A stretch of 64,000 nucleotides of DNA from Pseudomonadota bacterium (GTDB taxonomy: Bacteria > UBA10199 > 2-02-FULL-44-16 > JAAZCA01). How positions within the stretch are numbered: position 1 is the stretch's first letter; every line of letters begins with the position of its first letter. The position numbers and the translations under genes were made by a program. The notes under the pieces were generated by a model. That model did not search any database, was not told the DNA's origin, and was given only the letters and a program-made list of their open reading frames with translations. Below, one piece after another: positions 581 to 49,491 of this stretch. The stretch spans positions 7,281-71,280 of the forward strand of contig JAZDOG010000020.1 of assembly GCA_043798915.1 (NCBI GenBank), written 5' to 3'.

Positions 581-1678
581 TTATGATACGATCGATGGAT
601 CATTCATGCGCCGGAACGCCTTCTCCGCCATCCCGCAATAATAGGCTGCAGGGGCCTCCTCGTCGCCGGTCTCCAGAAAAGATGTGGCCGGGCAGATGCC
701 GCAGAGGGGCCTGAGCCGGCAGCTGCGGCATCTGGATTTCGTTTTGAATTTTTCCTTCAGGAGTTTCGGAAACTCCTCGTAGAAACCCTGCCGAAAGGGC
801 ACCTGCTTCAGATCGACGCCGAACCTCCTGGTCAGGGGGCACATCTTCAAAAAGCCAAAAGGGTCTATCGTGAACCCCGTCTTCCATTTCTCGCAATGAT
901 AAAGATGCTCCCTGTCCTTGTCCTTCGCCGGCCTGCGTGCCCTCTTCCCGGAGGGTGCCCCCTCACAATATTTTTTCCACATATCCTTATCCTGCCTCCT
1001 GACATCCTCGATCTCTTCGAACGTGAGTCTCAATTTCGTCGGCGCGAGGTCGCCGTTGAGCCTCGGCAAGATCATGGGGTCGTACTGGAAGCGATGTTTT
1101 TTCCGGTCCGGCGCGCCGGGGAGCCCATCGGCGAACGCCTTGATCCTTCCGATCTGATGCTGGTTCTGTTTCATGCAGTTCGTCTTGATCATGAAGGGAA
1201 TCTTTTCGTCGAAGAGCCTCCCGATGTTTCTCATCGTGCGCGCAAACGAGCCCTTCACCTGCGTGATCTCCTCGTAGACGTCCGCGGTGATGCCGTTGAG
1301 CGTTATCTCGACGGACTCCGGGGGGGAGGCGGCGAGATGGGAGATGATTCTTTCAGTCAGGGCATGCGCGCCGGTGTAGATGGTGACGATGAATCCCTTC
1401 CTCCTGGCGTAGTCGTAGAGCTCCAGGAAATCGGGCCTCACGAGGGGGTCGCCGCCGGTGAAGACGAGCCAGAGGCAGCCCTCCTCGCGGAGCCCATCGA
1501 GGATCTCTTTCCAGCCTTTGGCGGGGAGCTCCCGTTTTCTGTCCTCGCTGCCCTTGCAGAAGCAATGTATGCAGTTGAGGTCGCAGCTGTAGGTCAAACT
1601 GATATATCCCTTGAGCGGGGCGCGCTTCTTCTTGCGGTGTACCCAATCGCAAAAATAGACATGGCTGCGGTTCTTCAT
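581..1678 (-). CDS. Radical SAM/SPASM-domain peptide-modifying enzyme (maturase-like)
   Basis: Track ORF 581..1699 begins at TTG; the likelier ATG is at 1678 (MKNRSHVYFCDW..., GGAG 7 nt upstream). CxxxCxxC = CDLNCIHC. C-terminal Cys-rich SPASM-like region CRSCRLRPLCGICPA. 'VFTGGDPL' SAM motif. Confidence 0.8.
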   Translation of the reverse strand: MKNRSHVYFCDWVHRKKKRAPLKGYISLTYSCDLNCIHCFCKGSEDRKRELPAKGWKEILDGLREEGCLWLVFTGGDPLVRPDFLELYDYARRKGFIVTIYTGAHALTERIISHLAASPPESVEITLNGITADVYEEITQVKGSFARTMRNIGRLFDEKIPFMIKTNCMKQNQHQIGRIKAFADGLPGAPDRKKHRFQYDPMILPRLNGDLAPTKLRLTFEEIEDVRRQDKDMWKKYCEGAPSGKRARRPAKDKDREHLYHCEKWKTGFTIDPFGFLKMCPLTRRFGVDLKQVPFRQGFYEEFPKLLKEKFKTKSRCRSCRLRPLCGICPATSFLETGDEEAPAAYYCGMAEKAFRRMNDPSIVS

Positions 1679-1726
1679 CAGAGACTCCGGGAAGAGCAAT
1701 ACGGAAGGTCAATGCCTTGGTAAGGC

Positions 1727-2066: not shown

Positions 2067-2351
2067 CTAAACCAGGACCGCCTTGATCTCCTTTAAGTCC
2101 TTCAGGAGTTTTTTCATCTCCCTCTCCACCTCTTTGGGCGCGGAGCCAAACTCCTTCATGACCTTCTTTCCGATCCCCCCGGCCGTCGTCTTTCCGTCGA
2201 TCATCTCCCAGACCCGCGAGGCCGGTTTGTTGAGCGTGTAGATGCAATTGAGCTCTTCCGAGGTCTTGTAGATGGGCAGGAGGATTGTCTCATCGCCGAT
2301 CACGCGCGAGACCACGTCCGGATTCCTGCGCAGTATGGCGCCTTCACGCAT
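2067..2351 (-). CDS. PqqD-family protein (RiPP recognition element-like), 94 aa
   Basis: Track ORF 2067..2618, internal ATG at 2351 preceded by CAGGAGGGG. Sequence MREGAILRRNPDVVSRVIGDETILLPIYKTSEELNCIYTLNKPASRVWEMIDG... fits the PqqD/RRE pattern (P..v..r.idde.vLl.......y.LN..a..IWe..dG). The upstream 89 codons of the track ORF are G/P-rich low-complexity and probably untranslated. Confidence 0.7.
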   Translation of the reverse strand: MREGAILRRNPDVVSRVIGDETILLPIYKTSEELNCIYTLNKPASRVWEMIDGKTTAGGIGKKVMKEFGSAPKEVEREMKKLLKDLKEIKAVLV

Positions 2352-2440
2352 ATCCCCTCCTGTTGGAATGCCTTCCCCTGAATCCCGTGTATCTGACACG
2401 CGCGTATTTTTCAATAGATTTTTTGCCGGAGAGGTCCCCC

Positions 2441-2842
2441 TTAAGATTTTATCCATTGGTTCAGTCTGACCGCACCCCATATCCCAAGGCGGATCAGGGG
2501 GGCGAATACAACGATGGACCTGTTCACAAACCGATGCGCCCGGCTTGTCAGATTCACGACCGTGCCGTTCTTGAGGATTCCGACCACCTTTCCCAGACAG
2601 CGGTCCGGCGAGACGCATTCAGCGGTCCCGGATGTGTCGCCGCGCGCATAGAGGCGGTAGCCGCTGCCCTCTTTCGCCCTTCGAACGAGCCGGTGACAGA
2701 CGAACTTCTCGCCGGCGCGGTACAGGATGATGTCCCCCACTTTCAGATCACCGATGGGGGCCTCTCTTATTATCAGGCGCTCGCCCTGCTTGATGAACGG
2801 CCACATGCTGAATCCGGCCGTATCGAAGAATGAAACCTCCAT
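2441..2842 (-). CDS. S24/S26-family serine peptidase (signal-peptidase-I / SodX-like), 133 aa; candidate leader peptidase
   Basis: Start ATG at 2842 (MEVSFFDTAGFSMWPF...) with an AGGAGA RBS. A 'SMWP' motif matches the GDSMxP nucleophile box of S24/S26 peptidases. GDIILYR / GKVVGILKNG beta-strand motifs. Confidence 0.55.
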   Translation of the reverse strand: MEVSFFDTAGFSMWPFIKQGERLIIREAPIGDLKVGDIILYRAGEKFVCHRLVRRAKEGSGYRLYARGDTSGTAECVSPDRCLGKVVGILKNGTVVNLTSRAHRFVNRSIVVFAPLIRLGIWGAVRLNQWIKS

Positions 2843-7178: not shown

Positions 7179-8804
7179 TCAGATTTTCCCGTTCATCTCA
7201 TATACATCAAAATGCCCGATCTCCTTCACCTTTAAGAAATTGTCGAAGATGTAGGATTTGAGCAGCGGAAAATCGTCAAGGCCGTCGTAATTATCAGGAT
7301 CAATTCTATGGAGGACCACTATCTCGACTTCATTTTTTTTGAGGTCATCCACGATCCAATTGTCCAGCCTGGCATCGTAGACCTCCGGATACGTCAACCT
7401 CTTTGCGAATTCGACCAGCGGCTGGGGAGAAGGCTTGCCCAGCGCGCCATAGAGCATGGCAAATAAATATGGAAAGGTAAAAAAATTCCTGTCCTTTTTC
7501 CGAAGATAGCTGGCCAGATTGTCAATATTCTCCGCTTTGTACGGATTGTCTTCGGTCGATGACTCAGCCCATTTCATGGGCTGCAGGTTGGGTTCCTTCA
7601 GCGCATTGAGGGACATGATGGGGGTAATCCACCCGCTTTTGAAAGCGTATCTGACGCCCCTGACCGCACAGACTATGAGCAGCATGGACACCAGCACGAT
7701 TAAAATCTTTCTTGGAGGAATCTTCAATTCACTGCGAAGCACTCCGGCGCTTTCGGGTATGGACAAATCAAAAAAATGGAACAGGAGGCCCGTCTCAAGT
7801 GAAGCGACGATGCCCACGAAGGAATACGATGTGGGGTAGACGGAGGTGTAAAAGAAGAAAAGCTGAAAGAGGAAGGCGCCTATGCACAGGACGGAAGATA
7901 TGAATGGGAGTCTCCATGAGGATCTCACCTTTTTAAAATTGCAGAAATACAATGCAACCACGACGGCCGGAACTGCGATGGTCAGCAATGCATATGGCTT
8001 GTGCATCTTCAGGGATTCGTTGAAAAGGGTTCCAAATCTTCCCGCGCCCACGCCGAATGGAAGGAGGATGTAATAACGCAGAAAATTATTGAGATCCGAT
8101 TTATATACAAGCCAGGACAAAAAAAGCGAAGCCGCCGCAGAAATGCCAAGGAGGAAAACGGCGATGCGTCCCCATGCGGGCCTCGCTTCGGAAATCGATG
8201 CTGCGATGATCAGCATAAGAAATAAAGGGATGGCAAAAAAACCCGTGTTCTGCTTCCCCAATAGTGTTGCGAATGCAAAGATTCCGCCTGTGAAGAGAAG
8301 CGCCATGTTGATGATGGACCGCCGTGATTTGCCGCAGAGCGCGGGGAGGATGAGCGCTATCGCTATGAATGAGAACGCCAGCGATATCTGCTCCGGCACC
8401 GGTATGCCGAAGGGCGCATTGAACCAGATTGCGGTGAGGAAACCCGCGATGTACGACAGATATTTCTGTGGAAAGAGGATTCTGACCGTCATCATGCTGC
8501 AGAGCGTCGCGACGACACTCATAGATGCCGCACAGACAAGGAACGCCACATAGTTGACGCCCAGGAGCTTGAAAAAAAGCGCCACAAGCCAGAACAACGC
8601 CAGGCTATGCTGGGAGACGAAGTCCTTGAACAGGATCTGGCCTGAGAATACCCTGTAACCGCCATCGAACGTCAATGCCGGGCTCAGCGGCATGGCAACC
8701 TGGCCTCCTATATAGCTCACGATGAACGCCGCTGATAGTATGAGCAGGATCACCGCAAGATCAAGCAGCTTGGAGCTCAGACGCGACGGATTGCTATTTG
8801 CCAT
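7179..8804 (-). CDS. Polytopic membrane glycosyltransferase, GT-C superfamily (ArnT/PMT/GT39-like), with C-terminal soluble domain
   Basis: About 12 predicted hydrophobic helices then a ~150-aa hydrophilic C-terminus. Probable ATG at 8804 (MANSNPSRLSSKLLDLAVILLIL...); the track ORF extends to 8909. Confidence 0.45.
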   Translation of the reverse strand: MANSNPSRLSSKLLDLAVILLILSAAFIVSYIGGQVAMPLSPALTFDGGYRVFSGQILFKDFVSQHSLALFWLVALFFKLLGVNYVAFLVCAASMSVVATLCSMMTVRILFPQKYLSYIAGFLTAIWFNAPFGIPVPEQISLAFSFIAIALILPALCGKSRRSIINMALLFTGGIFAFATLLGKQNTGFFAIPLFLMLIIAASISEARPAWGRIAVFLLGISAAASLFLSWLVYKSDLNNFLRYYILLPFGVGAGRFGTLFNESLKMHKPYALLTIAVPAVVVALYFCNFKKVRSSWRLPFISSVLCIGAFLFQLFFFYTSVYPTSYSFVGIVASLETGLLFHFFDLSIPESAGVLRSELKIPPRKILIVLVSMLLIVCAVRGVRYAFKSGWITPIMSLNALKEPNLQPMKWAESSTEDNPYKAENIDNLASYLRKKDRNFFTFPYLFAMLYGALGKPSPQPLVEFAKRLTYPEVYDARLDNWIVDDLKKNEVEIVVLHRIDPDNYDGLDDFPLLKSYIFDNFLKVKEIGHFDVYEMNGKI

Positions 8805-8893: not shown

Positions 8894-9069
8894 TTACTAA
8901 GGAGAGCACATTATACCTCGCATCTTGCGGCCGCCAATGGCCTGCGACTGCGTCAGATTTCGCAAAAAGTGCTCAACGTAGCTTTGGCTACGCCTCCGCG
9001 CTTTTTGCTCATCTTCCTTGTCTCGGCTCATTGTCGTTGCAATCTGCGAGGTATAATGTGCTCTCCTTA
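8894..9069. mobile_element. MITE-like element: 29-bp perfect terminal inverted repeats (TTACTAAGGAGAGCACATTATACCTCGCA ... TGCGAGGTATAATGTGCTCTCCTTAGTAA) around a ~118-bp core
   Basis: Seen directly in sequence; lies in the divergent promoter region between the gene ending at 8804 (-) and the gene starting at 9118 (+). Explains the spurious mirrored ORFs 8722..9084(+) and 9009..9311(-), which both read 'KESTLYLA'. No transposase. Coordinates +/-2. Confidence 0.5.
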
Positions 9070-9117
9070 GTAAAGGGCTTGTAATGAACGCTGAAACTGG
9101 TAAAACTGGGTTCTCCG

Positions 9118-9975
9118 ATGAATATCAAAAAAGAAATATTCGATAAGCTCATCTGCTTAGGCTGCCATTCGAACGGATTGACCCTTTGCGCCGATTTCTC
9201 AATCCGGTGCGCCAAATGTTTGCGCACATATCCGATCGTGAACGGAGTGTATTCCTTTGTCCCGGAGGAAGCGGTTTCCTTCAGCGAAGTGCCGAAAGAG
9301 ATACGCGGCAATTATATCAGGGTTAAGAGGGCAGCCTACTTCGACGAGTCATTCATCCAAAAATTATACACGCATTATCATCGCTATGCGGGAAAGATGA
9401 GGAGCTTGTATGGCGGCGATGGATCAACGTTGGATATCGGGTTTGGGGCGGGCGAGCATTATGAATTCATCCGCCCTGACGAAAAAGACGGACGATCATT
9501 TATCGGAGCAGATCGCGACAGGTTCAAATTGGAATACTTTTGCAGAAATCATCAGGATGTTCCGGTGTTTCAGGCGGATGCACTCGACCTGCCGTTTTCG
9601 GATGGCAGTTTTGATGTGGTGCAGCTCTTGGCAACCATAGAACATTTTGATATAAAAGGCGTCAACAGGGTTATCTCTGAAAGCCTGAGGGTTTTGAAGG
9701 CGAACGGGATCCTGATCGTATGTTATCCGGCGGAAGGCAGCCTGCTGCTGAAGTGCTGCCGAAAGATCATGGGGGTCATTTTAAAGTTCAAGTCGGATTA
9801 TGACATGGTGAAAGATCTGGCGCATACGCATGCGCATTTATCTTCCGCCGCTGAAACAAGAAAAGCTTTGAAGAGCAACGGGCAATTAAAAAACGTCGAT
9901 TCATCATTCTACTTTCTGTCAATTCCAAATTTGCATTTATCACTTTTTATCAATGAAGTTTATAGAAAGATATAG
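9118..9975 (+). CDS. Class I SAM-dependent methyltransferase with N-terminal Trm112-like Zn-ribbon (CLGC...CAKC)
   Basis: Motif I 'LDIGFGAGEH'; acidic 'DALDLPFSDGSFDVV' post-I/II motifs (Methyltransf_11-like). Confidence 0.7.
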   Translation: MNIKKEIFDKLICLGCHSNGLTLCADFSIRCAKCLRTYPIVNGVYSFVPEEAVSFSEVPKEIRGNYIRVKRAAYFDESFIQKLYTHYHRYAGKMRSLYGGDGSTLDIGFGAGEHYEFIRPDEKDGRSFIGADRDRFKLEYFCRNHQDVPVFQADALDLPFSDGSFDVVQLLATIEHFDIKGVNRVISESLRVLKANGILIVCYPAEGSLLLKCCRKIMGVILKFKSDYDMVKDLAHTHAHLSSAAETRKALKSNGQLKNVDSSFYFLSIPNLHLSLFINEVYRKI

Positions 9976-9994
9976 CCGCCTTTGCAGGTAAAAT

Positions 9995-11512
9995 ATGACA
10001 ATGAATCGCAATAAAATATTGCTTGTTTATCCAAAGGTGGGGATGAGCGGTTCCTTTGCGTGTCATCTTCCTTTGAGCCTTCTCTATGCGGCGGCGGATT
10101 CCATCAAGGCTGGATTCGAGGTGGATATTGTCGATGTGAGGCTTTGTCCGCAGAAATGGAAGGAAGCCATCTCTGCGAAGATATCTTCCGGCACGATTTT
10201 GGCCGGGCTGAGCGTCATGACGGGCACGCCGATAAAAAATGCCCTTGAGATCTCCAGGTGGATCAGGAGTTCTTATTCCCATGTGAAGGTTGTCTGGGGA
10301 GGGCCCCACGCCGCTTTCAACGGCGCCGAGATTTTAAGGGAAAGGAGCATAGATTATGTCGTCAGCGGCTATGGTTCGCTGCCCCTGTCCAGGATTGCCA
10401 GGTTCCTGAGGGGCGACAAAGATGCATTGCAACTTGAGGACATATCCGGCCTGTCATATCGCAAAAACGGCTCTATCATGTCGGTGCCGAGGGAAAATAA
10501 ATTTGAGCTGATCAATTATAAAGACATTCCATACCACCTTATAGAAAAAGACCTTGGCCGCTATGGCCAGCTGGACAACGGCGAGATCATTTTCCCAATG
10601 TATAGCGTGGTAGGCTGCCCGTATCACTGCGCATTTTGTTCTTCCCCGGCTCAGTATAGGGATTTTACAAACAAGTACGAACGCATTTCATCGCAGGAGG
10701 TGGTCGACCATATCGAATTTGTTAAAAACGGGTATGGCGCCGAATATATATATTTCATCGATGATGATTCGTTCGTCAATCTTGAACATGTGACAAAAAT
10801 AATCGACGAGGTCAACAGCAGGGCGCTCAAGGTGCGCCTGGGTTTCAGGGGGGCCAGGATCGATGAGATCAAAAAAATGGATGACGAATATCTGGAAAAG
10901 CTGGTCGATGTCGGAACTGACATCCTTCATGTCGGTGCTGAATCAGGCTCGCAAAGGATGCTCGATCTGATACGAAAGGATATCACCGTCGATGATATTA
11001 TTTTCGTAAATAAAAAGATGGCGCGCCATAGCAGGATCGTTACCACATATAACTGGATAGTCGGGCTGCCGGGGGAGACGGAGGGCGATTTGCGCAAGAC
11101 GAGGGAGCTGATCATGACACTGCTGGGCGACAACCCGACTGCGATAATTGTCATGCCCAATAAATACCGCCCCTTGCCAGGAACAGAGCTGTATGAACAC
11201 GCGTTGAGACACGGCTATAAAAAACCTGCCAGGCTGGAAGACTGGATCGACAGAGAGGCGGAGGGAAGCTGGCGGATGCCGTGGTATACAAAAGAGACGG
11301 CAAAGATGATAGATATGATGCAGGTGACTTCATTTTTTATAGACGACAAAATATTCAAGGTGCGGACAGGCAGGACATTGAAGTTTCTCCTGGCGCGCCT
11401 GGTCTCCTGGATATATGCCCCGATAGCCAGGTTGAGATTTAAGCATGGTTTCTCAGGGATGCTAGTTGAACACAAATTGTTCCAATGGTCGGTCTCCGCC
11501 TTCCGAAAATAA
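9995..11512 (+). CDS. B12-binding-domain radical SAM protein (class B rSAM; likely C- or O-methyltransferase on a sugar)
   Basis: N-terminal Rossmann-like B12-binding region (ILLVYPK..., 'VVWGGPHA'), then rSAM cluster CPYHCAFC. Confidence 0.8.
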   Translation: MTMNRNKILLVYPKVGMSGSFACHLPLSLLYAAADSIKAGFEVDIVDVRLCPQKWKEAISAKISSGTILAGLSVMTGTPIKNALEISRWIRSSYSHVKVVWGGPHAAFNGAEILRERSIDYVVSGYGSLPLSRIARFLRGDKDALQLEDISGLSYRKNGSIMSVPRENKFELINYKDIPYHLIEKDLGRYGQLDNGEIIFPMYSVVGCPYHCAFCSSPAQYRDFTNKYERISSQEVVDHIEFVKNGYGAEYIYFIDDDSFVNLEHVTKIIDEVNSRALKVRLGFRGARIDEIKKMDDEYLEKLVDVGTDILHVGAESGSQRMLDLIRKDITVDDIIFVNKKMARHSRIVTTYNWIVGLPGETEGDLRKTRELIMTLLGDNPTAIIVMPNKYRPLPGTELYEHALRHGYKKPARLEDWIDREAEGSWRMPWYTKETAKMIDMMQVTSFFIDDKIFKVRTGRTLKFLLARLVSWIYAPIARLRFKHGFSGMLVEHKLFQWSVSAFRK

Positions 11513-25160: not shown

Positions 25161-26360
25161 ATGAAAATAGGCATATTTGTAGATATATTGACGAACAAGA
25201 AAACGGGTGTCGAATACTATACGCAGAACCTGCTGCAGCATCTGCTGGAAATGGACATAAAAAACCAATATTGCCTTATACGGCACGACGGAGTCGGGGT
25301 CGATTTTGAATCTGAAAAAAAATATACGGAAATAGTCTGTAAAAAGAGGAATCAGTCGATATTGTTCCTGCGCAGGTTTATCAATGTGTTGCCGCGACAA
25401 ATAACCCTGACCGTAATCAGGCAGATATTGAAATTCGTGCCGTCAATTTATTATTCCACCAACAAGAAGTTGAGGTCATTTGATATTTTGTTTTCGCCTA
25501 ATTTTGGCTTGGAGCTGGAGACCAATCCCCGCGCATATCAGATCGTCATCGTATATGACATAACTCCCATCCGCGTGCCTCAATGCCATAACAAAGAGGT
25601 GGGCATATTTTTCAATGCTGTCTTAGGCGATATTCTGAAGAAGGCGGACAAGATAATTGCCATAAGCGAATTTACAAAGCGCGATCTGATAACGCATTAT
25701 GGCATTGTTGAGGAAAAAATCAGCGTGATCTATCCTGGTTTAAACCGGCACATGACGCGGACGCCCAAAAGTTGCGATATTGTCAAAAAGTATAATCTTC
25801 CTGAAGATTTTATTCTCAGTTTTGGAACGCTTGAACCGAGAAAAAATGCCATTGCCGTCGTGAAATCATTCGCTCTGTTAAAGAAAGATGGGCGCAGGGA
25901 AATGCTTGTCATAGCTGGCAGAAAAGGATGGGGTTACGAGGACGTCTTTGTAACACTCAAACAGTTGGGGTTGGAGAAAAGTGTCTTGTTTACGGGGTAT
26001 GTCGATGAGGAGGACGTTCCGGGACTTTATGGCGCGGCGAGATTGCTCGTGTACCCGGCCCTTTACGAAGGGTTCGGGCTCCCTGTAATAGAGGCGATGT
26101 CATGCGGGTGCCCGGTGATCACATCCAGCACATCCTCGCTTCCTGAGGCGGGAGGGGATGCGGCGCTATACATCGATCCGACTGATGAAAAACAAATTTA
26201 TGAAGCCATGAAAAAAGTGATCGGTTCAGAAGAATTGAGGGGAGATATGATCATGAAGGGGCTCATTCAGGCATCCAAATTCAACTGGGATGAATCGGCC
26301 AGGAAGGTCATCAAAATCTTTGAAGAAGCAGAAAGGGCCATGCATAATGAACGAATCTGA
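25161..26360 (+). CDS. Glycosyltransferase family 4
   Basis: 'FGTLEPRKN', '[28 protein letters not shown]' signature. Confidence 0.8.
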
Positions 26361-32194: not shown

Positions 32195-33706
32195 GTGAAG
32201 ATATGTTGTGTGCAACGGGATTATCATTCTGGAAAAATCCATCCATTGCAGTGGAATGGCGATCATCAGGTTCAATATTGCAGCGAATCGCGAGGTTTAA
32301 ATCCCGATCGTTATTTGAAGATGCTCTCCCAGTCAGACGTCATCGTTCGGCTTAAATTATCCCAACTGCCATTGCCTCCCACCCTGCTTGAAAATTTATT
32401 GAGCCTGTGGCTGAAGAATAAATTTTACGTGAAATGCACCGGCAGTCAGATTTTATTGGACAGCCTGTGTATAGAGATATTTGGCAATGAGGCGGTGCGG
32501 TCCGTCAAACTTCAGAAACATCGTTTTTTAGAGGACGGAGCGCTGAATGCCTTCGTGGACAGCCGCGCGGTGCCCTATTGGATGAGCTTGGAGGAACAGC
32601 GTTTTTATCTGTTGGACAATTTTGATCGATATTATTCAAAACCGAACACCTATATCATAGAGACGACGCCTTTTTGCAATCTCAAGTGTGTCAAATGCCC
32701 CCATCATTCGATGAGGTTGCCACGCCCGGCGGCAGGGGCCAAGCCCCTGCCGGGGCAGGCGTTCATGACGCTCGAGGAGTGGAAATATATTATAGATATG
32801 GTGAGCGAAGTTTCCCGCAACGCCCCGCAGCCGCCAGGCATATTCCCGGCCGTCCGCGGCGAGTGCCTTATGAATAAGGATATTATCCCGATGGTCGCCT
32901 ATGCAGCGAACAGCGGCCATATCGTAAAAATTATCACCAATGGCAATCTTCTGACTGAAGACAAGGCCAAAGGCCTCATCGATGCCGGCCTTGGTTCCAT
33001 CATCTTCAGTTTAGATGCAGTCAATGAATCACAATATGACAAACTGCAACCCGGTGGCAGTTATCGGGACGTCGTCAGGAACATAGAGAGGCTGCTGAAG
33101 CTCAGGGGCGGCATGAAAAGGCCATCCGTCGGTGTACTGTGCTGCCAAACACCTGAGAACCAGGATGATTTTCAAGAGTATCTCCGACGTTGGGAGGGGC
33201 AGGTGGATACTGTCACCGCCTCTGTCTGTTATGACATAGAGAAAGGTTTTCGACCATGGAAGGTTTTTTATCCTGTCGCAGATCGATACCCGTGTATCTA
33301 TCTGTGGGGTTCCATGCTGATTCATGCAGATGGCGGGATGGCGCTCTGCGGAATTGATGTGTCCCGAAAATATAACCTGGGCAATATCTTCAAAGGGGAT
33401 CTGCTTTCAATCTGGAACAGCGAAAAAATCCATCGCCTGCGCGAATACCAGATGAGCGACAAAAGAAAAGAGGGTTTGTGCCAGGAGTGCATATGCTGGA
33501 CGAATCCCTATTTTATCGAAAAAATAGATGGCGACAGGAGCTGGACTATAGGCCCGCAGAACATGTCGATATCGCACTATCGGCCAAAACCGCTCGGCGA
33601 ACGCGCCGCCGTTCGAACCAAAAAGCTGTTGCTCGGTCTCGGCGTTCCCAGTGGTATCATCGGCCGTCTTCGAAAATTTTATTTCAAACTTGGAAGGCGA
33701 CATTGA
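32195..33706 (+). CDS. Radical SAM/SPASM-domain protein with ~150-aa N-terminal extension
   Basis: CNLKCVKC (CxxxCxxC) at about residue 163. C-terminal SPASM-like Cys cluster CGIDVSRKYNLGNIF...GLCQECICW. True start may be an internal Met. Confidence 0.7.
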   Translation: MKICCVQRDYHSGKIHPLQWNGDHQVQYCSESRGLNPDRYLKMLSQSDVIVRLKLSQLPLPPTLLENLLSLWLKNKFYVKCTGSQILLDSLCIEIFGNEAVRSVKLQKHRFLEDGALNAFVDSRAVPYWMSLEEQRFYLLDNFDRYYSKPNTYIIETTPFCNLKCVKCPHHSMRLPRPAAGAKPLPGQAFMTLEEWKYIIDMVSEVSRNAPQPPGIFPAVRGECLMNKDIIPMVAYAANSGHIVKIITNGNLLTEDKAKGLIDAGLGSIIFSLDAVNESQYDKLQPGGSYRDVVRNIERLLKLRGGMKRPSVGVLCCQTPENQDDFQEYLRRWEGQVDTVTASVCYDIEKGFRPWKVFYPVADRYPCIYLWGSMLIHADGGMALCGIDVSRKYNLGNIFKGDLLSIWNSEKIHRLREYQMSDKRKEGLCQECICWTNPYFIEKIDGDRSWTIGPQNMSISHYRPKPLGERAAVRTKKLLLGLGVPSGIIGRLRKFYFKLGRRH

Positions 33707-33708
33707 CT

Positions 33709-34824
33709 ATGACCGATGAGTCGCCGATGAGCAATCAGGTTTATCAACTGCCTTCTCGCATTCCAGAGCTCGACGGCCTGCGTGCGATAGCCGTGCTGGC
33801 TGTGATGAGCGCTCATGCGGGGCTTCCCGGCTTCGCACGGGGTGGTGTGGGTGTTTATCTTTTTTTCGTGCTTTCAGGATTTCTCATCACCGGAATTCTC
33901 CTGGATGCTGACAAGGGTAAAGGGTATTTCAAAAACTTTTACGCTCGGCGTGCGCTTCGCATTTTTCCGATTTATTACATGACATTTGCGTTTCTATTGG
34001 CGCTGGCCTTTCTTCAGGGCTTGAAAACAAGCGATTGGCCCTGGTATCTTGCCTATGCTCAAAATTATCTTTTCATCTTCAAACATTTTCCGCCGAATTT
34101 CCCCAGCTGCTTTAATCATACCTGGTCCCTGGCCGTCGAGGAGCAGTTTTATTTCATATGGCCATTCCTCATTGGGATCCTCGGAAAAAGACGAGTGTTC
34201 ATCGTCTCCCTGATCTTCATCCCTTTGGCCATCGGCTTGCGTTGCTTTCATATCCAGGCAATCTTTGGTCCCGAGGTTTGGACGCTGCCCGTGAATCTGA
34301 ATTCGCTCGGCGGGGGGGCGGCGCTGGCAGTGGCGGTCCGTACCTTTGACCGGGAAACCCTGAAGAAAGTCTGCCGTGCGCTCTTCCTTGGTGGTGCGAT
34401 CGCCTGGGTTGTGATTCAGATATTCGTGAGCCCATATGGAATGGGCTGGCTTGAGCTTGGAATGGTTTGCTGCACTACAATAACATTCACCGGGCTCGTT
34501 GGAACAGCTGTGCTGTCACCGCCGTCGCTACTATCCGGTTTTCTTAGCCTTGGCTGGATGCGCTATATCGGCAAAATCAGTTATGGATTATATCTGTACC
34601 ACCCGCTGGTTTTTCTTTTGATGTGGCACTTGTTCAGGGGGCAAGTGGTCAGGCCAGATCATGGCAAGGGTGTGATCCTTTTGTTGGTCCTGGCCAAATT
34701 CGGTTTGACTTTCGTTGCAGCCTCCTTATCATGGCTCCTTTTGGAAAAGCGCATGAATGGTTTCAAGAAGAAGTTTGAATATACCAGAGTCACCCTGAGC
34801 CGCATTGCCCAAGCTCCGATGTAA
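33709..34824 (+). CDS. Acyltransferase family 3 (OafA/OatA-like membrane O-acyltransferase)
   Basis: ATG at 33709. N-terminal 'LDGLRAIAVLAVMSAHAG', 'GVGVYLFFVLSGFLIT', 'RRALRIFPIYY' hallmarks of Acyl_transf_3; about 10 TM helices. Confidence 0.8.
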   Translation: MTDESPMSNQVYQLPSRIPELDGLRAIAVLAVMSAHAGLPGFARGGVGVYLFFVLSGFLITGILLDADKGKGYFKNFYARRALRIFPIYYMTFAFLLALAFLQGLKTSDWPWYLAYAQNYLFIFKHFPPNFPSCFNHTWSLAVEEQFYFIWPFLIGILGKRRVFIVSLIFIPLAIGLRCFHIQAIFGPEVWTLPVNLNSLGGGAALAVAVRTFDRETLKKVCRALFLGGAIAWVVIQIFVSPYGMGWLELGMVCCTTITFTGLVGTAVLSPPSLLSGFLSLGWMRYIGKISYGLYLYHPLVFLLMWHLFRGQVVRPDHGKGVILLLVLAKFGLTFVAASLSWLLLEKRMNGFKKKFEYTRVTLSRIAQAPM

Positions 34825-34870
34825 GGAGTTAGCGGATGCGAGGGTGCTTGTTGAAGGGTGAGAACAGGAG

Positions 34871-36295
34871 GTGTTGATGTGCTCAGCTGATGGTGAAACA
34901 GGAACGAGGAAGAGCTTCATCGCTGCGACCATAAAGTTTTTTTCGTCATGGCGTGGAATGCATTTTTTTATCTTGGCATTTGTTATGGCGGTTGCCTTTT
35001 CTTTTATTTTTCCGCAAAAAATTGAATATGATTCCACGCAGTATGAGCATCTTGGATGGAACATTTCCCAGGGAAACGGTTTGTCAGATGCCTCGGCAGC
35101 GCCTTTTGTGCCGACCTCAGGCCGCGAGCCGGTCTATCCGCTCTTTATCAGTTTGTTTTATCTTTTTTTTGGAAGACATCCGGAAATTGTGCTGGTAGCC
35201 CAGTCGCTGTTGCATGCAACCACTGCTCTTTTGATCTACCGGCTGGCCTGTCGATGGTTTTCCTTAAGCGTGGCCGGTCTGGCCGGCTTTCTGACCGCTG
35301 TGGATCCAACCCTTTATGGTTTTTGCAGCTACTTGCTGACAGAACCCCTGGCTCTCTTTTTGCTGGCCTCGTTCGTCTATTTGGCGGTTTTCGTGCGAGA
35401 GCGGAATGGTCTGGCTTTCTCCTTGGCGGGGGGGGCACTGCTCGGCGCTTTGGCGCTTTGTCGTGCGGTGTTTATGTTTTTGCCGGTTGTTTTTTTTGTG
35501 TTTATGGTGTTTTCGCGTTTTCCATCAAAACTTGGAAAAAGGATCGTTTATGGGATGATTCTGATCCTTGTTTTTATGAGTGTTCTTTCGCCATGGTTGT
35601 ATAGGAATAAAAAGGCATTCGGTGTTGCTTTTATCACCGCGCGTTCAGGCGAGATGCTTTTGTGGAAGGCGTTGAGGACAGAGCACTCCCCAAGGGAAAT
35701 GCTCGTGGATCTTGTTTATGGAACATCGGATACTCTGGGCCGAAAATTATTTCCCGATGATTATTCGAGGATGAATATCAGCGGGGAACATGGTCCGGAA
35801 AACGTATATCCCATTGGCGTAGAGAGATATATGCGGTATCTTGCCGATGGGTACTCTGAGCTTGAGGCCGATCGCCTGCTTCGAATCGATGCGATTAGGA
35901 TAATTATAAAACGCCCCTTTAAATACATCGCTCAGTGTTTTGTCGACGCGTGGAAGCTCTCTTTTTTTGAGATAGTTCCATTTGCCTACTCAACACGGTT
36001 CAATCAGTTGATGCAAAGGGGAGATTGTCTGTTAGGCTTGGGGACCGCCCTGAGGATACTGCTTCGTTATGTGTATTCATGGCTGATAATTTTATTGGCT
36101 GTCAAAGGATTTCTGGAAGTCCAAAAAGAATGGAGACGAAAATGTCTGTTGCTGGTACCAATTATTTATACGATAGGGACGGCCATTCCATTTGATGTTA
36201 GCGGGAGATACGTCTATCCTGCATTGCCATTTATCCTGATTTTAGCATCGGTATCGGTTGTCAATTTCATTGAAAGAAAACAGCCGTCTTTGTAA
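34871..36295 (+). CDS. GT-C superfamily membrane glycosyltransferase (ArnT/PMT_2-like); paralog of 42463..43839
   Basis: 'YDSTQYEHLGWNISQGNGLS...REPVYPLFIS' closely parallels 'YDAAQYEHLGWNLSQGNGLS...REPLYPFFIS' in the paralog; multiple TM helices. Confidence 0.55.
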   Translation: MLMCSADGETGTRKSFIAATIKFFSSWRGMHFFILAFVMAVAFSFIFPQKIEYDSTQYEHLGWNISQGNGLSDASAAPFVPTSGREPVYPLFISLFYLFFGRHPEIVLVAQSLLHATTALLIYRLACRWFSLSVAGLAGFLTAVDPTLYGFCSYLLTEPLALFLLASFVYLAVFVRERNGLAFSLAGGALLGALALCRAVFMFLPVVFFVFMVFSRFPSKLGKRIVYGMILILVFMSVLSPWLYRNKKAFGVAFITARSGEMLLWKALRTEHSPREMLVDLVYGTSDTLGRKLFPDDYSRMNISGEHGPENVYPIGVERYMRYLADGYSELEADRLLRIDAIRIIIKRPFKYIAQCFVDAWKLSFFEIVPFAYSTRFNQLMQRGDCLLGLGTALRILLRYVYSWLIILLAVKGFLEVQKEWRRKCLLLVPIIYTIGTAIPFDVSGRYVYPALPFILILASVSVVNFIERKQPSL

Positions 36296-40431: not shown

Positions 40432-41537
40432 TCCCATTATCCGTCATAGACGTAGGGGACGAGGAGCTGAGGGCCGTAAAAGAGGTGCTCGATTCAGGCT
40501 GGTTGACCGAGGGCGTCAAAAACAGGGAATTTGAAGAACGATTCGCCGAATATATAGGCGTCAAAAAGGCGGTCGCCCTGAATTCCTGCACTTCGGCACT
40601 TTTCCTGGCTGTCAAAGCCCTGAATATCACAGGGGAAGTCATTTTGCCCAGCTTCACATTTGTCGCCTCCGCCAACGCAGTGGTCACGGCTGGGGCCATG
40701 CCGGTTTTTGCCGACGTGAATTACGAGACGTGCAATATCGACCCACACGACATAGAGAAAAAAATCACCAAAAGGACGCAAGCGATCATGCCGGTCCATT
40801 TTGGCGGTCTCCCGGCCGAGATGGAAGCGATCGTCGGGATAGCCCGGAAACATAATTTGCGCATCATCGAGGATTCCGCTGAGACTATCGGCGGTGAATA
40901 CGGCGGAAAAAAAACCGGCAGCTATGACATAGGTTGCTTCTCTTTCTTTCCAACCAAAAGCATGACCACTGGAGAGGGGGGCATGCTGACCACCGGCGAC
41001 GCCGATCTCTCGGAGAAGATAAAAACACTGGCAGGTCATGGTGTTTCAAAAGGCGATCATAAAAACAAAAAAGGGGAAAAGCCGTGGTCCAGGGAGGCTG
41101 TTCTTGCGGGCTACAATTTCCGGATGAGCGATATCCTCGCCGCCATAGGTGTCGAGCAGCTCAAAAAAATTGAAAAAATGAACAGCCTGAGGAGACAGCA
41201 TGCAGGATATTTGACTGCTGGCCTTGCCGGGCTGGGCATCGATCTGCCGGTGGAGAGCGCCGGCTGCAGGCACGTCTATCAGATGTACACTGTTAAAACG
41301 GGCAGAGAAAGAGACCGGGTTGTTTTGAGGTTGAGGGAAATGGGCGTGGGCGCGTCCGTTCATTTTGATCCGCCGGCTCACCTGCAGCCGTATTACATGG
41401 ATAACTTCGGATGCAGGAGGGGCGACCTGCCGGCAACCGAGCGATTGGCGGACTCTATATTGACCCTGCCGATGTATCCGCAGATGAAAAGGCCGGATCT
41501 CGATTTTATAATCTCCGCCATGAAGGAGGTCCTGTGA
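40428..41537 (+). CDS. DegT/DnrJ/EryC1/StrS-family PLP-dependent sugar aminotransferase (ArnB/Per-like)
   Basis: 'DSGWLTEG', 'ALNSCTSAL', 'FSFFPTKSMTTGEGGM' (Lys in the FxxK motif); 4-nt overlap with the upstream epimerase. Confidence 0.85.
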   Translation: MIPLSVIDVGDEELRAVKEVLDSGWLTEGVKNREFEERFAEYIGVKKAVALNSCTSALFLAVKALNITGEVILPSFTFVASANAVVTAGAMPVFADVNYETCNIDPHDIEKKITKRTQAIMPVHFGGLPAEMEAIVGIARKHNLRIIEDSAETIGGEYGGKKTGSYDIGCFSFFPTKSMTTGEGGMLTTGDADLSEKIKTLAGHGVSKGDHKNKKGEKPWSREAVLAGYNFRMSDILAAIGVEQLKKIEKMNSLRRQHAGYLTAGLAGLGIDLPVESAGCRHVYQMYTVKTGRERDRVVLRLREMGVGASVHFDPPAHLQPYYMDNFGCRRGDLPATERLADSILTLPMYPQMKRPDLDFIISAMKEVL

Positions 41538-41539
41538 TT

Positions 41540-42448
41540 GTGGACGACCATCGGAAATTCAACATGCCTTATGTTGTAGTCTTTGTGCCCGCGCACAACG
41601 AGGAGGGCTCGATCGGTCGGGTGATCGAGGCGATCGATAAGAGTTACCGCGGCGATGCCCCCCGCGACTATGTTTTGGATATCGTGGTGGTGGACGACGG
41701 ATCCAGCGATGAGACTGCACGGATAGCCAGGCAGATGAAGGTCAAGAGGGTCATCAGCCATCCGTACAATAGGGGTCTGGGGGCGGCCACAAGGACCGGG
41801 ATGCAGGTCGCCTATGAGATGGAAGCGGATGTCGCCGTCAAGATAGACGCCGACTTTCAACACGATCCTGAGGATATCGAGCGCGTTATCCGTCCGATTC
41901 TTGAGGACAGGGCTGACTGCGTGTTCGGCTCAAGATTTCTCGGGGGCCTTCAATACAAGATGCCATTGTACCGCTCTCTGGGGAATAAATTTTTCGGCTG
42001 GATGACGGGCACGATCATCAAGCAAAAGGTCACGGACGGGCAGACCGGCCTGATGGCATTCAACAGGAGATATCTTTCGAGATTCACAATTTTAAGGGAT
42101 TACAACGAAACCCAGCAGCTGATCATAGATTCCTGGGGGAAGGGCATGAGGGTCATAGAGGTCTCGGTGCTGTTTCACAAGCGCGTTTCCGGACAATCAT
42201 TTATCTCCTGGAAATATCCCCTTGAAGTCATCCCTTCGATTCTAAGGGCCTGCGCGCATGCAAACCCTTTAAGGGTATTCCTGACTCTGGGGCTTGCGGT
42301 GACGCTGACCGGAGTGCTCATCGCTGCCGCGTGGATCTCCGGCTTGACTCGGTTTCCTGGAGATGCCGCCGCCTCGATACTGATCGTCGTGGGGGCGCAG
42401 ATAATCCTTTTTGGTTTTCTTGCCGATATCATCAAATTCAATCGCTAG
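41540..42448 (+). CDS. GT2 polyprenyl-phosphate aminosugar/sugar synthase (ArnC/GtrB-like) with C-terminal TM helices
   Basis: GTG start after a GAAGGAGG RBS; 'VVFVPAHNEEGSI', 'VVVDDGSSDETA', 'DADFQHDP'; C-terminal hydrophobic helices. Confidence 0.75.
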   Translation: MDDHRKFNMPYVVVFVPAHNEEGSIGRVIEAIDKSYRGDAPRDYVLDIVVVDDGSSDETARIARQMKVKRVISHPYNRGLGAATRTGMQVAYEMEADVAVKIDADFQHDPEDIERVIRPILEDRADCVFGSRFLGGLQYKMPLYRSLGNKFFGWMTGTIIKQKVTDGQTGLMAFNRRYLSRFTILRDYNETQQLIIDSWGKGMRVIEVSVLFHKRVSGQSFISWKYPLEVIPSILRACAHANPLRVFLTLGLAVTLTGVLIAAAWISGLTRFPGDAAASILIVVGAQIILFGFLADIIKFNR

Positions 42449-46700: not shown

Positions 46701-48389
46701 TTATTTATCAAGACGATATAGTTTAAAATGTGCAGTCTGCACCACAAGAGTCAAATTGAACGTCTGAAAAATCCTCTGATAGTCTGGAGCGAACTCATTA
46801 TCAAAATAGCCTGAATAACTTGACAAAAAAAGCGGTTTTTTGTCTTCGAGGAGACCGCGCACAAGCTCATCCGTTGCCAACGGGACAGCCGGGGGAAATA
46901 TTTTGCCCTTGAAGTAGAATTGCAGATCGGCATAGGCCACGTTTGGCGAGACTGCGATAAATGTCACGTTTTTGGAACGTCCCACCTGATGCGTAAATAG
47001 TATCGGTTCGAAATCAGAAATCAGGAAAGAACCATCCGGCAATTTATTCTTCATAAAGTCCAGATAATCCCGCTTGAGCGTTTCAAATGGCGGATGAGAG
47101 TATGAATAGGCGAAGGGAATGAAGGTCAGGAGACCGATAAATATTACGGCTGGCGCTTTTTTAAAAAATCGGCCTATCCCTGCTGCCGCAGACAAGATTA
47201 TGATCGGAGCGACGGGAAGCATGTAACACGTGCTTTGTGAGAAGAGAAACACATGCGGCAGGTAATATGCCGCAAAAAAAATGGCAGAAAAAAAGAAAAA
47301 AGGTCTATCCCTTCGATAAAACTGGACGAGTCCAAAGACAGCAAAGAGCCAGATGATAATTGCGAGAGCTATTTGATCGGGCCGAGCCGATAAAATAGTG
47401 GAGGGTTCCGCTCCTGTCGAGGAAATAAGGTTATATAATATATTTGAACTTGCTCCGTATGCTGGCCTGGAAGCGTAACTCAAGGAAAATGGTCTCTGGA
47501 TATTGGCCGTGAAATGTGTCCAGTAAGAATAACCAGTGAGCAACGGCGAACCGAATTCTCTCCATTGATAATAAAAGAGTCCCGCCAATGGAATAATGGC
47601 GCCTAGCAAAAGACTTGCGCTCCTTTTAAGTTTGAATTCCCGCTCGTTCTGCATCAGGAGATAAACAACCGCCGCTGGTACCGCGGCTATGGCGAGATAA
47701 CGGACGGCCGCCGCGAAACCAAGCAGGAAACCCGCGATCATCAGCTTTGCTGTGCCGGTCTTTTTATCGGCAAGCAAAAGCAATGCCCCTAAAACAAGAA
47801 ACAGCGGCGCCATCATGGGCAATATAATCCGGCTATTGGAGATATGAAGGGGTGAAAACGAAAGGAGCAGAAGAGCCAGCAAGGCAGTTTGCTCATCCGC
47901 GATTTTCCGCCCCAAGCGATATATTATGAGGAGCGAAAGAATTCCCAAAAGAAGGGGGCAAAAAACACCCGCCCCAAGATCGCTGCCAAATACGAGGTAA
48001 AAAGGCGCAAGCATCATAGAAAAACCTGGGGCCTTGCTCATCGGGTGATCTGTCTGGTTAATAGGGACGGATAAGGTGCCCGAACTTATAAGCTCTGCCG
48101 CAGGAACGGCGTAGTGAACACTGTCAAAACTTACCATCTCTTCAAATCCACGGCTAGCGGAAACGACCCTTAATAAAATCGCACTAATCAAAATGACACA
48201 ATAAAACATCTTATTGATCCTGATCGAAGAAAATTTAAAGCGATGTTTCAAGAAAAAGAAGACAGTGAAGAGCAAAGCGGCAAGGACCAACCCCTTTTCA
48301 AGCAAGCGGAGCTGATAGACAGTCCAGGGCAGGAGCTGATGGTCCAGGCTCAGATGTTTTTGAACGAAAAATTCAAGTGGATGCATCAT
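46701..48389 (-). CDS. GT-C superfamily membrane glycosyltransferase (ArnT/PMT-like), 562 aa
   Basis: Many TM helices ('LLLLSFSPLHISNSRIILPMMAP...'), C-terminal soluble domain. Start may be an internal Met (MFYCVILISAILL...). Confidence 0.5.
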   Translation of the reverse strand: MMHPLEFFVQKHLSLDHQLLPWTVYQLRLLEKGLVLAALLFTVFFFLKHRFKFSSIRINKMFYCVILISAILLRVVSASRGFEEMVSFDSVHYAVPAAELISSGTLSVPINQTDHPMSKAPGFSMMLAPFYLVFGSDLGAGVFCPLLLGILSLLIIYRLGRKIADEQTALLALLLLSFSPLHISNSRIILPMMAPLFLVLGALLLLADKKTGTAKLMIAGFLLGFAAAVRYLAIAAVPAAVVYLLMQNEREFKLKRSASLLLGAIIPLAGLFYYQWREFGSPLLTGYSYWTHFTANIQRPFSLSYASRPAYGASSNILYNLISSTGAEPSTILSARPDQIALAIIIWLFAVFGLVQFYRRDRPFFFFSAIFFAAYYLPHVFLFSQSTCYMLPVAPIIILSAAAGIGRFFKKAPAVIFIGLLTFIPFAYSYSHPPFETLKRDYLDFMKNKLPDGSFLISDFEPILFTHQVGRSKNVTFIAVSPNVAYADLQFYFKGKIFPPAVPLATDELVRGLLEDKKPLFLSSYSGYFDNEFAPDYQRIFQTFNLTLVVQTAHFKLYRLDK

Positions 48390-48485
48390 GTTAAGGGTAT
48401 CGCTAAAAACCGCATTTGCAAGGCAAAGTTTCTCCTAAGGAAATCATTGCCAAGGAGCCGCCTTTTAAGTATAAAGCCGTCGCTT

Positions 48486-49481
48486 ATGAAACGCGCCTTA
48501 ATCACAGGGATAACCGGCCAGGATGGTTCTTATCTGGCAGAGCTTCTGCTGCAGAAGGGCTATAGTGTGTACGGCGTTGTTCGGCTTTCGCGCACCTATG
48601 GTTTTGAAAACATAAAAGGAATCCTCGACCGGATCACGCTGCTTGATGCTGACCTGTTGGAGCACACATCGCTGACCGCTCTATTGGAAGATGTTGAGCC
48701 TGACGAGGTGTACAACCTGGGCTCATTGTCCTATGTGCCAACATCATGGAAGATGCCGGTATTGATGGCAGAGATAAATGCCGTTGGCGTCGGTCGCATC
48801 CTGGAAGCCATTCGGTGCGTGAATCCCAAAATAAGATTTTACCAGGCCTCCAGCAGCGAGATGTTTGGGGCTGTCAAGGAAGTTCCGCAAAACGAGGATA
48901 CGCCGTTCAATCCGGTCAACCCCTATGCGGTCGCGAAGGTCTATGGCCATCACATCACACGAATATACCGTGAGGCTTATGGTCTCAATGCCTGCAGTGG
49001 CATCCTTTTTAATCACGAATCCCCGCGCCGCGGCCTGCAGTTTGTCACCAGAAAAGTAACCAGGGGCGTCGCACAGATCAAACTCGGGCAGGCCAAGGAG
49101 ATATGCCTGGGGAATTTAGAAGCCAAGAGGGATTGGGGGTATTCCCCTGATTACGTGGAGGCGATCTGGATGATGCTGCAGCAGCGGAAACCCGACGACT
49201 ACGTCATCGCAACCGGAAAAACGCGCAGCGTCGAAGAACTGCTGGACTGTGCCTTTAGCTATATCCGCCGCCCATGGCGGGAACACGTCAGGATTGATCC
49301 AAAGATGAAAAGGCCAGTCGATGTAAATCTGCTCGTGGGCGATGCGAGCAAGGCCAAACAGCATTTAAATTGGTCGCCGAAGAAGACTTTTCAAGAGATG
49401 ATCTGGGAAATGGTAGAGGCTGACATCAGAGATCTCACCGATAATCGACAGGGTATGTCGCCCATCAGCACGGCCGGGTAA
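48486..49481 (+). CDS. gmd: GDP-mannose 4,6-dehydratase
   Basis: 'MKRALITGITGQDGSYLAELLLQKGYSVYGVVR' is the canonical Gmd N-terminus; 'YAVAKVYGHHIT' YxxxK. The upstream 81 codons of the track ORF are likely untranslated. Confidence 0.85.
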   Translation: MKRALITGITGQDGSYLAELLLQKGYSVYGVVRLSRTYGFENIKGILDRITLLDADLLEHTSLTALLEDVEPDEVYNLGSLSYVPTSWKMPVLMAEINAVGVGRILEAIRCVNPKIRFYQASSSEMFGAVKEVPQNEDTPFNPVNPYAVAKVYGHHITRIYREAYGLNACSGILFNHESPRRGLQFVTRKVTRGVAQIKLGQAKEICLGNLEAKRDWGYSPDYVEAIWMMLQQRKPDDYVIATGKTRSVEELLDCAFSYIRRPWREHVRIDPKMKRPVDVNLLVGDASKAKQHLNWSPKKTFQEMIWEMVEADIRDLTDNRQGMSPISTAG

Positions 49482-49491
49482 GGCGCGGCCG

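Follow-up and report, generated by a model that had tools for sequence, protein, structure and literature searches.

Genomic context

The inverted repeat described here occupies the 313-nt gap between two divergent transcription units in a 64-kb stretch of DNA (the window), in which all of the approximately 52 substantial ORFs, as judged by Pfam, fall into one very large glycan/modification locus comprising glycosyltransferases, several PMT_2 proteins, many radical-SAM (rSAM) and methyltransferase genes, and export functions of the Wzx/Wzy/Wza/Wzc type. The leftward gene shows a 100% match to NCBI MFH0798821, from a MAG labelled Pseudomonadota bacterium, and homologues of its product carry PF13231 (PMT_2), a GT-C family; the rightward unit is a methyltransferase/B12-rSAM operon (Table 1). 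Gene identification on both flanks thus bore out the placement given in the original prediction, between a divergent GT-C gene and this operon. Neither a transposase nor a tyrosine or serine recombinase was found by Pfam among the approximately 52 ORFs, and no Y1_Tnp (RAYT) match was obtained in the window. The nearest relative of the locus (L001) is 45% identical at the protein level, and its syntenic intergenic region measures 106 nt and carries no palindrome.

The glycan locus extends from 581 to 63507 and contains five PMT_2/GT-C-like genes, at least seven rSAM genes (two B12-binding, two with SPASM) and about ten class-I methyltransferases, together with a PqqD-like gene, a Schlafen/AlbA_2 gene beside a ParA-like ATPase gene, and an SxtJ-like gene beside a carbamoyltransferase gene. 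The same theme is seen in L001, with PqqD, B12-rSAM, methyltransferase and a double GT-C. Two short G/C-rich palindromes at 1968-1988 and 2037-2057 (CCCCTCCTTTGTAAGGAGGGG / CCTCCCCTTACAAAGGGGAGG), located between an rSAM gene (581-1699, minus strand) and the PqqD-like gene (2067-2618, minus strand), may be terminators or a small repeat. ORFs of at least 90 aa are absent from four intervals of 0.8-1.2 kb each (25400-26290, 33706-34871, 41537-42331 and 48389-49492), except for one 90-aa ORF at 48744-49016.

Architecture of the inverted repeat

The perfect 29-bp terminal inverted repeats of the original prediction were borne out: TTACTAAGGAGAGCACATTATACCTCGCA at 8894-8922 (plus strand) is followed, across a spacer of 122 nt, by its exact reverse complement at 9045-9073 (29 of 29 nt), and two matches with at most three mismatches occurred in none of 100 dinucleotide-preserving shuffles of the window. 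The right arm therefore ends at 9073 and not at 9069, and the spacer replaces the core of 118 bp that had been assumed. When two mismatches are allowed, the arms lengthen to 35 nt (8894-8928 / 9039-9073) with 94% complementarity.

The palindrome is not confined to the arms. Self-complementarity of the 122-nt interior scored 20, compared with -20 +/- 7 in shuffled sequences, none of 1000 of which reached 20, and folding of the whole 178 nt gives a single long hairpin (z = -11.8 for DNA, z = -9.3 for RNA). The arm itself (TIR, terminal inverted repeat) is not self-complementary, and the G+C content of the element is approximately 50%. An assembly artefact was rejected, as the same sequence occurs in independent assemblies from at least four projects.

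In all seven element ends observed (7/7), the sequence reads ...CCTTAG-TA. Applied to the window, this rule gives a true TIR of 26 nt and a mobile unit of 174 bp, and the copy parses as T-TA-[26-nt TIR ... 26-nt TIR]-TA-A (ggT-TA-[8897...9070]-TA-Aagg). The perfect 29 nt are accordingly accounted for by the 26-nt TIR, the palindromic TA duplication and, in the target (T-TA-A), a T/A pair that matches by chance.

Table 1. Coordinates of the element, its parts and the flanking transcription units in the window
Feature	Position	Strand	Remarks
GT-C/PMT_2-like membrane protein gene, beyond the putative leftward promoter	7179..8804	-	ATG 89 nt outside the 29-nt arm
TA target-site duplication, left copy	8895..8896	.	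Single TA in empty L011/L012, TA on both sides in filled L002; TA after 7/7 ends
Left 26-nt TIR, CTAAGGAGAGCACATTATACCTCGCA	8897..8922	+	Leftward -10 box TATAAT on the minus strand at 8915..8910
Internal region, 122 nt, imperfect palindrome	8923..9044	.	Leftward -35 TTGGCG (minus strand, 8937..8932); rightward -35-like TTGTCG (9031-9036)
Central hairpin module, 84 nt	8942..9025	.	Stems 8963-8972/8998-9007 and 8977-8982/8987-8992; common to the L010 element
Right 26-nt TIR, TGCGAGGTATAATGTGCTCTCCTTAG	9045..9070	+	Rightward -10 box TATAAT at 9052-9057
TA target-site duplication, right copy	9071..9072	.	Direct sequence reading and analogy with L002/L011/L012
Operon beyond the putative rightward promoter	9118..11512	+	Class-I methyltransferase 9118-9975, B12-binding radical SAM 9995-11512; ATG 44 nt outside the 29-nt arm

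Dispersed copies in related organisms

The exact 29-mer was found neither in 185,579 GTDB species representatives nor in JGI metagenomes, which is explained by two substitutions peculiar to the window copy. The 20-mer CTAAGGAGAGCACATTATAC, likewise absent from the 185,579 GTDB representatives, is present in seven JGI metagenome contigs that represent at least five distinct loci and come from related organisms. Full or partial elements occur in L003 (96.5% identity to element positions 68-180), L008 (95.4% to positions 1-152) and L002 (96.5% to positions 95-179, internally deleted), while L006 and the identical trio L004/L005/L007 hold a single TIR of 23-26 nt and no core. The first 20-23 nt of the TIR are identical across L002-L008, and arms, linker and core are shared as one unit, at 95-98% identity, by L003, L008 and L002. 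The L003 contig starts and the L008 contig ends inside the element, as expected of a repeat that breaks assemblies.

Control BLAST searches identified the element as the only sequence common to these contigs and the window, or shared among the contigs, and the genes beside it have no relationship to one another from locus to locus: they encode a response regulator, a small secreted protein together with a sulfotransferase, an ABC-F protein together with an rSAM protein, and a DsbA-like protein. Since these loci have nothing else in common, the element is a dispersed repeat, and the search for additional copies that had been proposed as a check thus gave a positive answer, at 95-96% identity, in the metagenome contigs L003, L008 and L002. 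The best NCBI homologue of the rSAM protein encoded on L002 is P0013 (MFH0799519; 83% identity), whose accession lies only about 700 from that of the GT-C protein of the window; owing to this proximity both proteins probably derive from the same MAG, which would make the L002 organism a relative.

The DsbA-like gene deserves a separate remark. In L004, and identically in L005 and L007, it is DsbA/FrnE-like, lies on the minus strand and has its ATG approximately 160 nt downstream of the solo TIR (1028-1056). A TGA stands in frame where the CxxC motif has its first cysteine (MSIRMQVYSDYI*PFCYIGEG...), a full-length open frame follows, and from its sequence the gene is a probable selenoprotein gene.

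Copy number appears to be low. A single copy is present in the 64 kb of the window, and there is none in about 52 kb of unselected DNA of relatives. L013 and L014, two contigs of the same 90% cluster totalling 27.7 kb, lack it, and the family is hence not a high-copy one; the absence of both the 29-mer and the 20-mer from the GTDB representatives likewise indicates a family that is at best rare and low-copy. As a side observation, a GH94 (cellobiose/chitobiose phosphorylase-like) gene at 5441-9918 of L013 (ENA ERZ25039462 contig_73224) appears to be split into many small called ORFs, which looks like long-read frameshift errors rather than biology.

Plasmid and phage BLAST searches returned no match to the element. 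Among viral contigs, a single 19/20-nt match (L009) was judged to be due to chance, as it lies in AT-rich, coding-looking sequence and does not extend beyond the matching stretch. An IS with matching terminal inverted repeats, which the original prediction had suggested looking for and which would be the autonomous partner, was not encountered in the window, the flanks of the other copies, plasmids, phages or viral contigs, and the genome and metagenome scans returned short copies only. Transposase genes were likewise absent from the neighbourhood of the other copies.

Empty sites, target duplication and decay

L002 and L006 represent one locus in two nearly identical strains, a divergent intergenic region flanked by the genes of an ABC-F ATPase and a B12-rSAM protein, for which orthologous loci were retrieved with the rSAM protein. 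Two of these, L012 (87% aa identity) and L011 (95% aa identity), are empty: L012 reads TTTTGACCAGCTAAAATTGGGA-TA-AGGGGGACGGTCG (TTTTGACCAGCTAAAATTGGGA-TA-AGGGGGACGG; ...GGGA-TA-AGGG...), and L011 has an equivalent sequence with a single TA. L002 is filled, with an internal deletion, and reads ...AAAATTAGGA-TA-[CTAAGGAGAGCACATTATACTTTGCAGATTGC...GGCGTAG/TAG]-TA-AGGGGGGACGG (...AGGA-TA-[CTAAGGAGAG...]-TA-AGGGGGG), and L006 retains a remnant, TTTTGACCAG/TATAATGTGCTCTCCTTAG-TA-AGGGGGACGG (...GACCAG^TATAATGTGCTCTCCTTAG-TA-AGGGGG). As the TA is single in L011 and L012 and doubled around the insert of L002, the element was inserted at a TA that was duplicated on insertion. The comparison with an empty site in relatives that had been proposed gave its answer at the L002/L006 locus and not at the window's own position; the 2-bp duplication is short and, being palindromic, is indistinguishable from the inverted repeat within a single copy.

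The two strains at this locus also illustrate how the element decays. Independent deletions have reduced a full copy in both, each leaving the opposite arm: L002 is now a half element and L006 a solo TIR that still carries the TATAAT box. The long palindrome is unstable and decays by deletion.

Outward promoter-like sequences and coding potential

Both putative promoters lie wholly inside the element, with -35 and -10 alike. A promoter scan identified a leftward sigma-70-like match, TTGGCG-16 nt-TATAAT, which agrees with the consensus at 10 of 12 positions, and a rightward promoter-like match, TTGTCG-15 nt-TATAAT, whose 15-nt spacer is suboptimal; in the alignment of the other copies, TTGGCG is the consensus -35 on both halves. 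Given usual promoter spacing, transcription would be expected to start inside the TIRs, at approximately 8903 leftward and 9064 rightward, and the resulting transcripts would have 5' ends starting with the anti-SD-like CUCUCCUUAG. The insertion would thereby supply or replace promoter activity for both divergent units, the GT-C gene and the methyltransferase/B12-rSAM operon, and judging from the consensus matches and the Correia precedent it probably changes the transcription of both through its putative outward promoters. All seven arms (7/7) are situated upstream of a gene start on the same strand, at distances of 26-438 nt, and this common orientation towards downstream gene starts is suggestive, albeit not a strong statistic.

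The polarity of the arms differs from that first proposed. It had been suggested that AAGGAGAG could create outward-facing SD-like sequences, but at both ends it is found on the inward-reading strand. Outward, each arm reads GGTATAATGTGCTCTCCTTAG, in which an anti-SD-like CTCCTT comes after a TATAAT box. A small ORF starting from the inward AAGGAGAG was considered and rejected, since no standard start codon is suitably spaced from it and the frames show no conservation at the protein level. None of the three open frames in the element has an SD with a start codon or belongs to a protein family, and their concatenated translations, compared with 5.8 billion proteins, matched only P0010, in which the similarity corresponds to a spurious N-terminal extension. 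An intrinsic terminator at the central hairpin was likewise discarded, as no terminator-like site was found, and an Rfam search with E up to 10 returned noise and no family for the element.

Gene callers do stretch real genes into the element, as in L008 (1225-1593, minus strand) and P0010 (L010 2110-3276), the outward frame (...ARYNVLSLV) being open through the TIR.

Symmetry of the hairpin and the L010 core

The central 84 nt can be compared in three independent copies (window, L008 and L010), where they contain five variable columns, four of which form two compensatory pairs (A-U to G-C; G-C to C-G); for five random substitutions, the probability of obtaining two such pairs is approximately 1.7e-4. 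In addition, the two arms of the window copy share substitutions (...ACCTCGCA) that are missing from every other copy (...ACTT..CA). Together, the compensatory pairs and the arm-shared substitutions indicate that symmetry is actively kept, which could be due either to selection on the hairpin (as ssDNA, cruciform or RNA) or to template-switch correction of the quasi-palindrome. Quasi-palindrome template switching is a known mutational process.

L010 presents a different arrangement. P0010 is a SurA-like protein whose called N-terminus is translated element, and its contig belongs to the NCBI MAG GCA_964505575.1 (contig CAZDIW010000172), with a G+C content of 58% versus 51%. Positions 2179-2262 of L010 are 96.4% identical to the 84-nt core of the window, and they lie within a palindrome of approximately 177 nt (2134-2310) that has unrelated arms (GAACTCATTTCAAAACCCTCTCG... 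/ ...CGAGAGTGTTTTAAAATGAGTTC). This palindrome sits exactly between two co-oriented SurA-like genes, its right arm providing the ATG of the second, and the L010-type arm motif recurs in L001 (6752-6769), where 18/18 nt agree and the motif sits at an rSAM start codon.

L010 reverses the usual MITE pattern of conserved TIRs and variable interior, and is left unexplained by a simple MITE model. Two MITE families may have recombined here, or the hairpin may be a separable module. The broader proposal that the element is modular, the 84-nt hairpin moving between or being captured by different TIR pairs (CTAAGGAGAG... of the window type and GAACTCATTT... of the L010 type) and forming the selected, functional unit, is considered unlikely. 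If it were true, the hairpin might be a site for a host factor or transposase accessory, or an RNA stabiliser, and the TIRs would be portable expression signals, namely a promoter in the window type and an RBS with ATG in the L010 type.

Interpretation and alternative explanations

The element is dispersed, non-coding, TIR-bounded and quasi-palindromic, and at another locus, by comparison with orthologous sites that are empty, it is recognizable as an insertion with a duplicated TA target. For the window itself, it is very likely that the palindrome is a 174-bp non-autonomous MITE (8897-9070) with perfect 26-nt TIRs, inserted at a TA between the divergent units, with duplication of the TA and with outward promoter-like sequence in each direction. 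Bacterial MITEs are characterized by a length below 200 bp, TIRs, 5'-TA-3' termini, target-site duplication and long stem-loops (PMC2229807). Small size (174 bp), absence of coding capacity and perfect 26-nt TIRs were all observed here, together with a target-site duplication recognized by the filled/empty comparison at another locus; the MITE reading of the original prediction is supported by the dispersed copies at 95-96% identity and by the empty and filled sites of the L002/L006 locus. A duplicated TA, as in IS630/Tc1-mariner-derived MITEs, was found at the L002 locus, and 7/7 ends are followed by TA. By analogy with other TA-duplicating MITEs, such as RUP with IS630-Spn1 and Correia, mobilisation would take place in trans through a TA-duplicating DDE transposase of the IS630/Tc1-mariner type encoded elsewhere. 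As Rfam, plasmids, phages and viral contigs returned no match, the element most likely belongs to an undescribed MITE family of an uncultured lineage.

Two readings in which the repeats belong to the locus itself must be weighed against a mobile origin. A native regulatory palindrome, in which twin operator/promoter copies evolved in place to coordinate the divergent operons, possibly via DNA looping or a cruciform, would suit a structure that sits exactly in the divergent promoter region, has a -10 box overlapped by each arm, and possesses very strong cruciform/hairpin potential. It is contradicted by copies at 95-96% identity before unrelated genes, namely those for a response regulator, for a secreted protein plus sulfotransferase, and for ABC-F/rSAM, by presence/absence polymorphism with target-site duplication at the orthologous L002/L006 site, and by the palindrome-free 106-nt syntenic gap of L001. 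The regulatory cruciform or operator that the original prediction had offered as its alternative is thus largely refuted by the dispersed copies, and we regard it as highly improbable. Equally improbable is an inverton, in which a site-specific recombinase would flip the 122-nt core, so that the better -35 (TTGGCG, 16-nt spacer), now on the GT-C side, would end up on that of the methyltransferase and make the surface-glycan locus phase-variable. Inverted repeats of 29 nt around 122 nt in a polysaccharide locus are typical of invertons in size and context, and the -10 boxes do lie in the invariant arms with differing -35 hexamers in the core (TTGGCG-16 vs TTGTCG-15). Nonetheless, a tyrosine or serine recombinase is absent from the roughly 52 ORFs in 64 kb, a flip would alter very little because the core is itself palindromic, the opposite orientation within the same flanks was seen in no contig, and the copies at unrelated loci, with empty orthologous sites and TA duplication, account for the repeats without inversion.

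A further alternative keeps mobility and shifts the boundaries, taking the central hairpin (8942-9025) as the functional or mobile unit, be it a structured RNA, an ssDNA hairpin, a REPIN/REP-like element or an element that targets palindrome apices, and the 29-nt arms as a separate module. The 84-nt core at 96% identity within the unrelated arms of L010, in a genome of 58% versus 51% G+C, speaks for this, as do the arms lacking a core in L004/L005/L007 and L006 and the preservation of the core hairpin by compensatory changes. Against it stand the joint occurrence of arms, linker and core in L003, L008 and L002 (95-98% identity) and the empty-site junctions, which fall at the arm ends and not at the core ends; moreover, the solo arm of L006 can be shown to be what a deletion left behind at a filled site, no direct repeat consistently flanks the core in the window and L010, and neither an Rfam match nor, in the window, a RAYT/Y1 transposase was found. 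This reading is accordingly judged very unlikely, and a REPIN/RAYT-type element is contradicted by the TA duplication, the arms that are not self-palindromic and the lack of Y1_Tnp in the window.

Comparison with known systems

With the TA-inserted MITE as the preferred reading, the closest known system is the Correia element (CREE) of Neisseria, of which the element described here is an analogue and not a member. Both are small, non-coding, intergenic and able to form long hairpins, at approximately 105-155 bp for Correia (CREE/NEMIS) and 174 bp here, and both have TIRs of similar length (24-26 bp versus 26 bp) with TA termini and target-site duplication (PMC2229807). Correia elements give rise to promoters at one end or at both, and these can drive adjacent genes (PMC2649163). 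The differences are nevertheless considerable: no sequence relationship was detected in Rfam, plasmid and phage searches, and the TIR (CTAAGGAGAG...) is unmatched in annotated collections; the host is an uncultured 'Pseudomonadota'/deltaproteobacteria-like MAG and not Neisseria; a G+C content of approximately 50% means that the element is not A+T-rich, and its -35 and -10 are both internal; and Correia elements number hundreds per genome, whereas the present element is apparently low-copy.

RUP, a MITE of Streptococcus pneumoniae whose presumed mobiliser is IS630-Spn1, shares the insertion at TA and the non-autonomous character and serves as a model for mobilisation in trans by the IS630 family (PMC2229807), but it measures 107 bp, has TIRs of approximately 9 bp and possesses an identified partner IS, whereas no partner was found here. 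The enterobacterial ERIC/IRU and YPAL elements (127-168 bp) resemble the present one as imperfect, intergenic, hairpin-forming palindromes with filled and empty sites between related strains (PMC2229807); they differ in having 7-bp TIRs and in acting mainly as co-transcribed RNA hairpins, with no paired outward promoters. REP/REPIN sequences, mobilised by RAYT/Y1, similarly form hairpins from inverted doublets and leave single units as decay products (PMC2817692), yet REPINs have no target-site duplication and the REP unit is itself palindromic, in contrast to the TA duplication, the non-self-complementary arm and the RAYT-free window found here.

Invertons such as fimS and the Bacteroides capsule promoters are comparable in that inverted repeats surround 100-300 bp with promoter elements upstream of surface-structure genes; they need a recombinase and show two orientations at a fixed locus, whereas the present element is dispersed and almost symmetric, and unoccupied sites exist. 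Finally, putative mobile promoters, or promoter reuse in prokaryotes, involve very similar promoter-bearing sequences upstream of unrelated genes, as here (PMC3575422). They constitute a descriptive category without a defined transposition mechanism, whereas in the present case the vehicle is identified as a MITE with TIRs and a TA target-site duplication.

Implications

The finding raises no new mechanistic question, as its principle is already established by the Correia, RUP and ERIC elements, and only the observation that core and arms may be modular might merit further study. On the practical level, the element breaks metagenome assemblies and causes spurious N-terminal extensions in gene calls (P0010 and the L008 ORF), while its TIR is usable as a marker of strain-level presence/absence variation in the lineage. 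Its value lies in providing a clean case, from uncultured bacteria, of a MITE with two complete outward putative promoters in a control region between divergent genes of a very large surface-glycan locus; such an insertion, and the later deletions down to a solo TIR with its TATAAT box, can alter how both neighbours are expressed.
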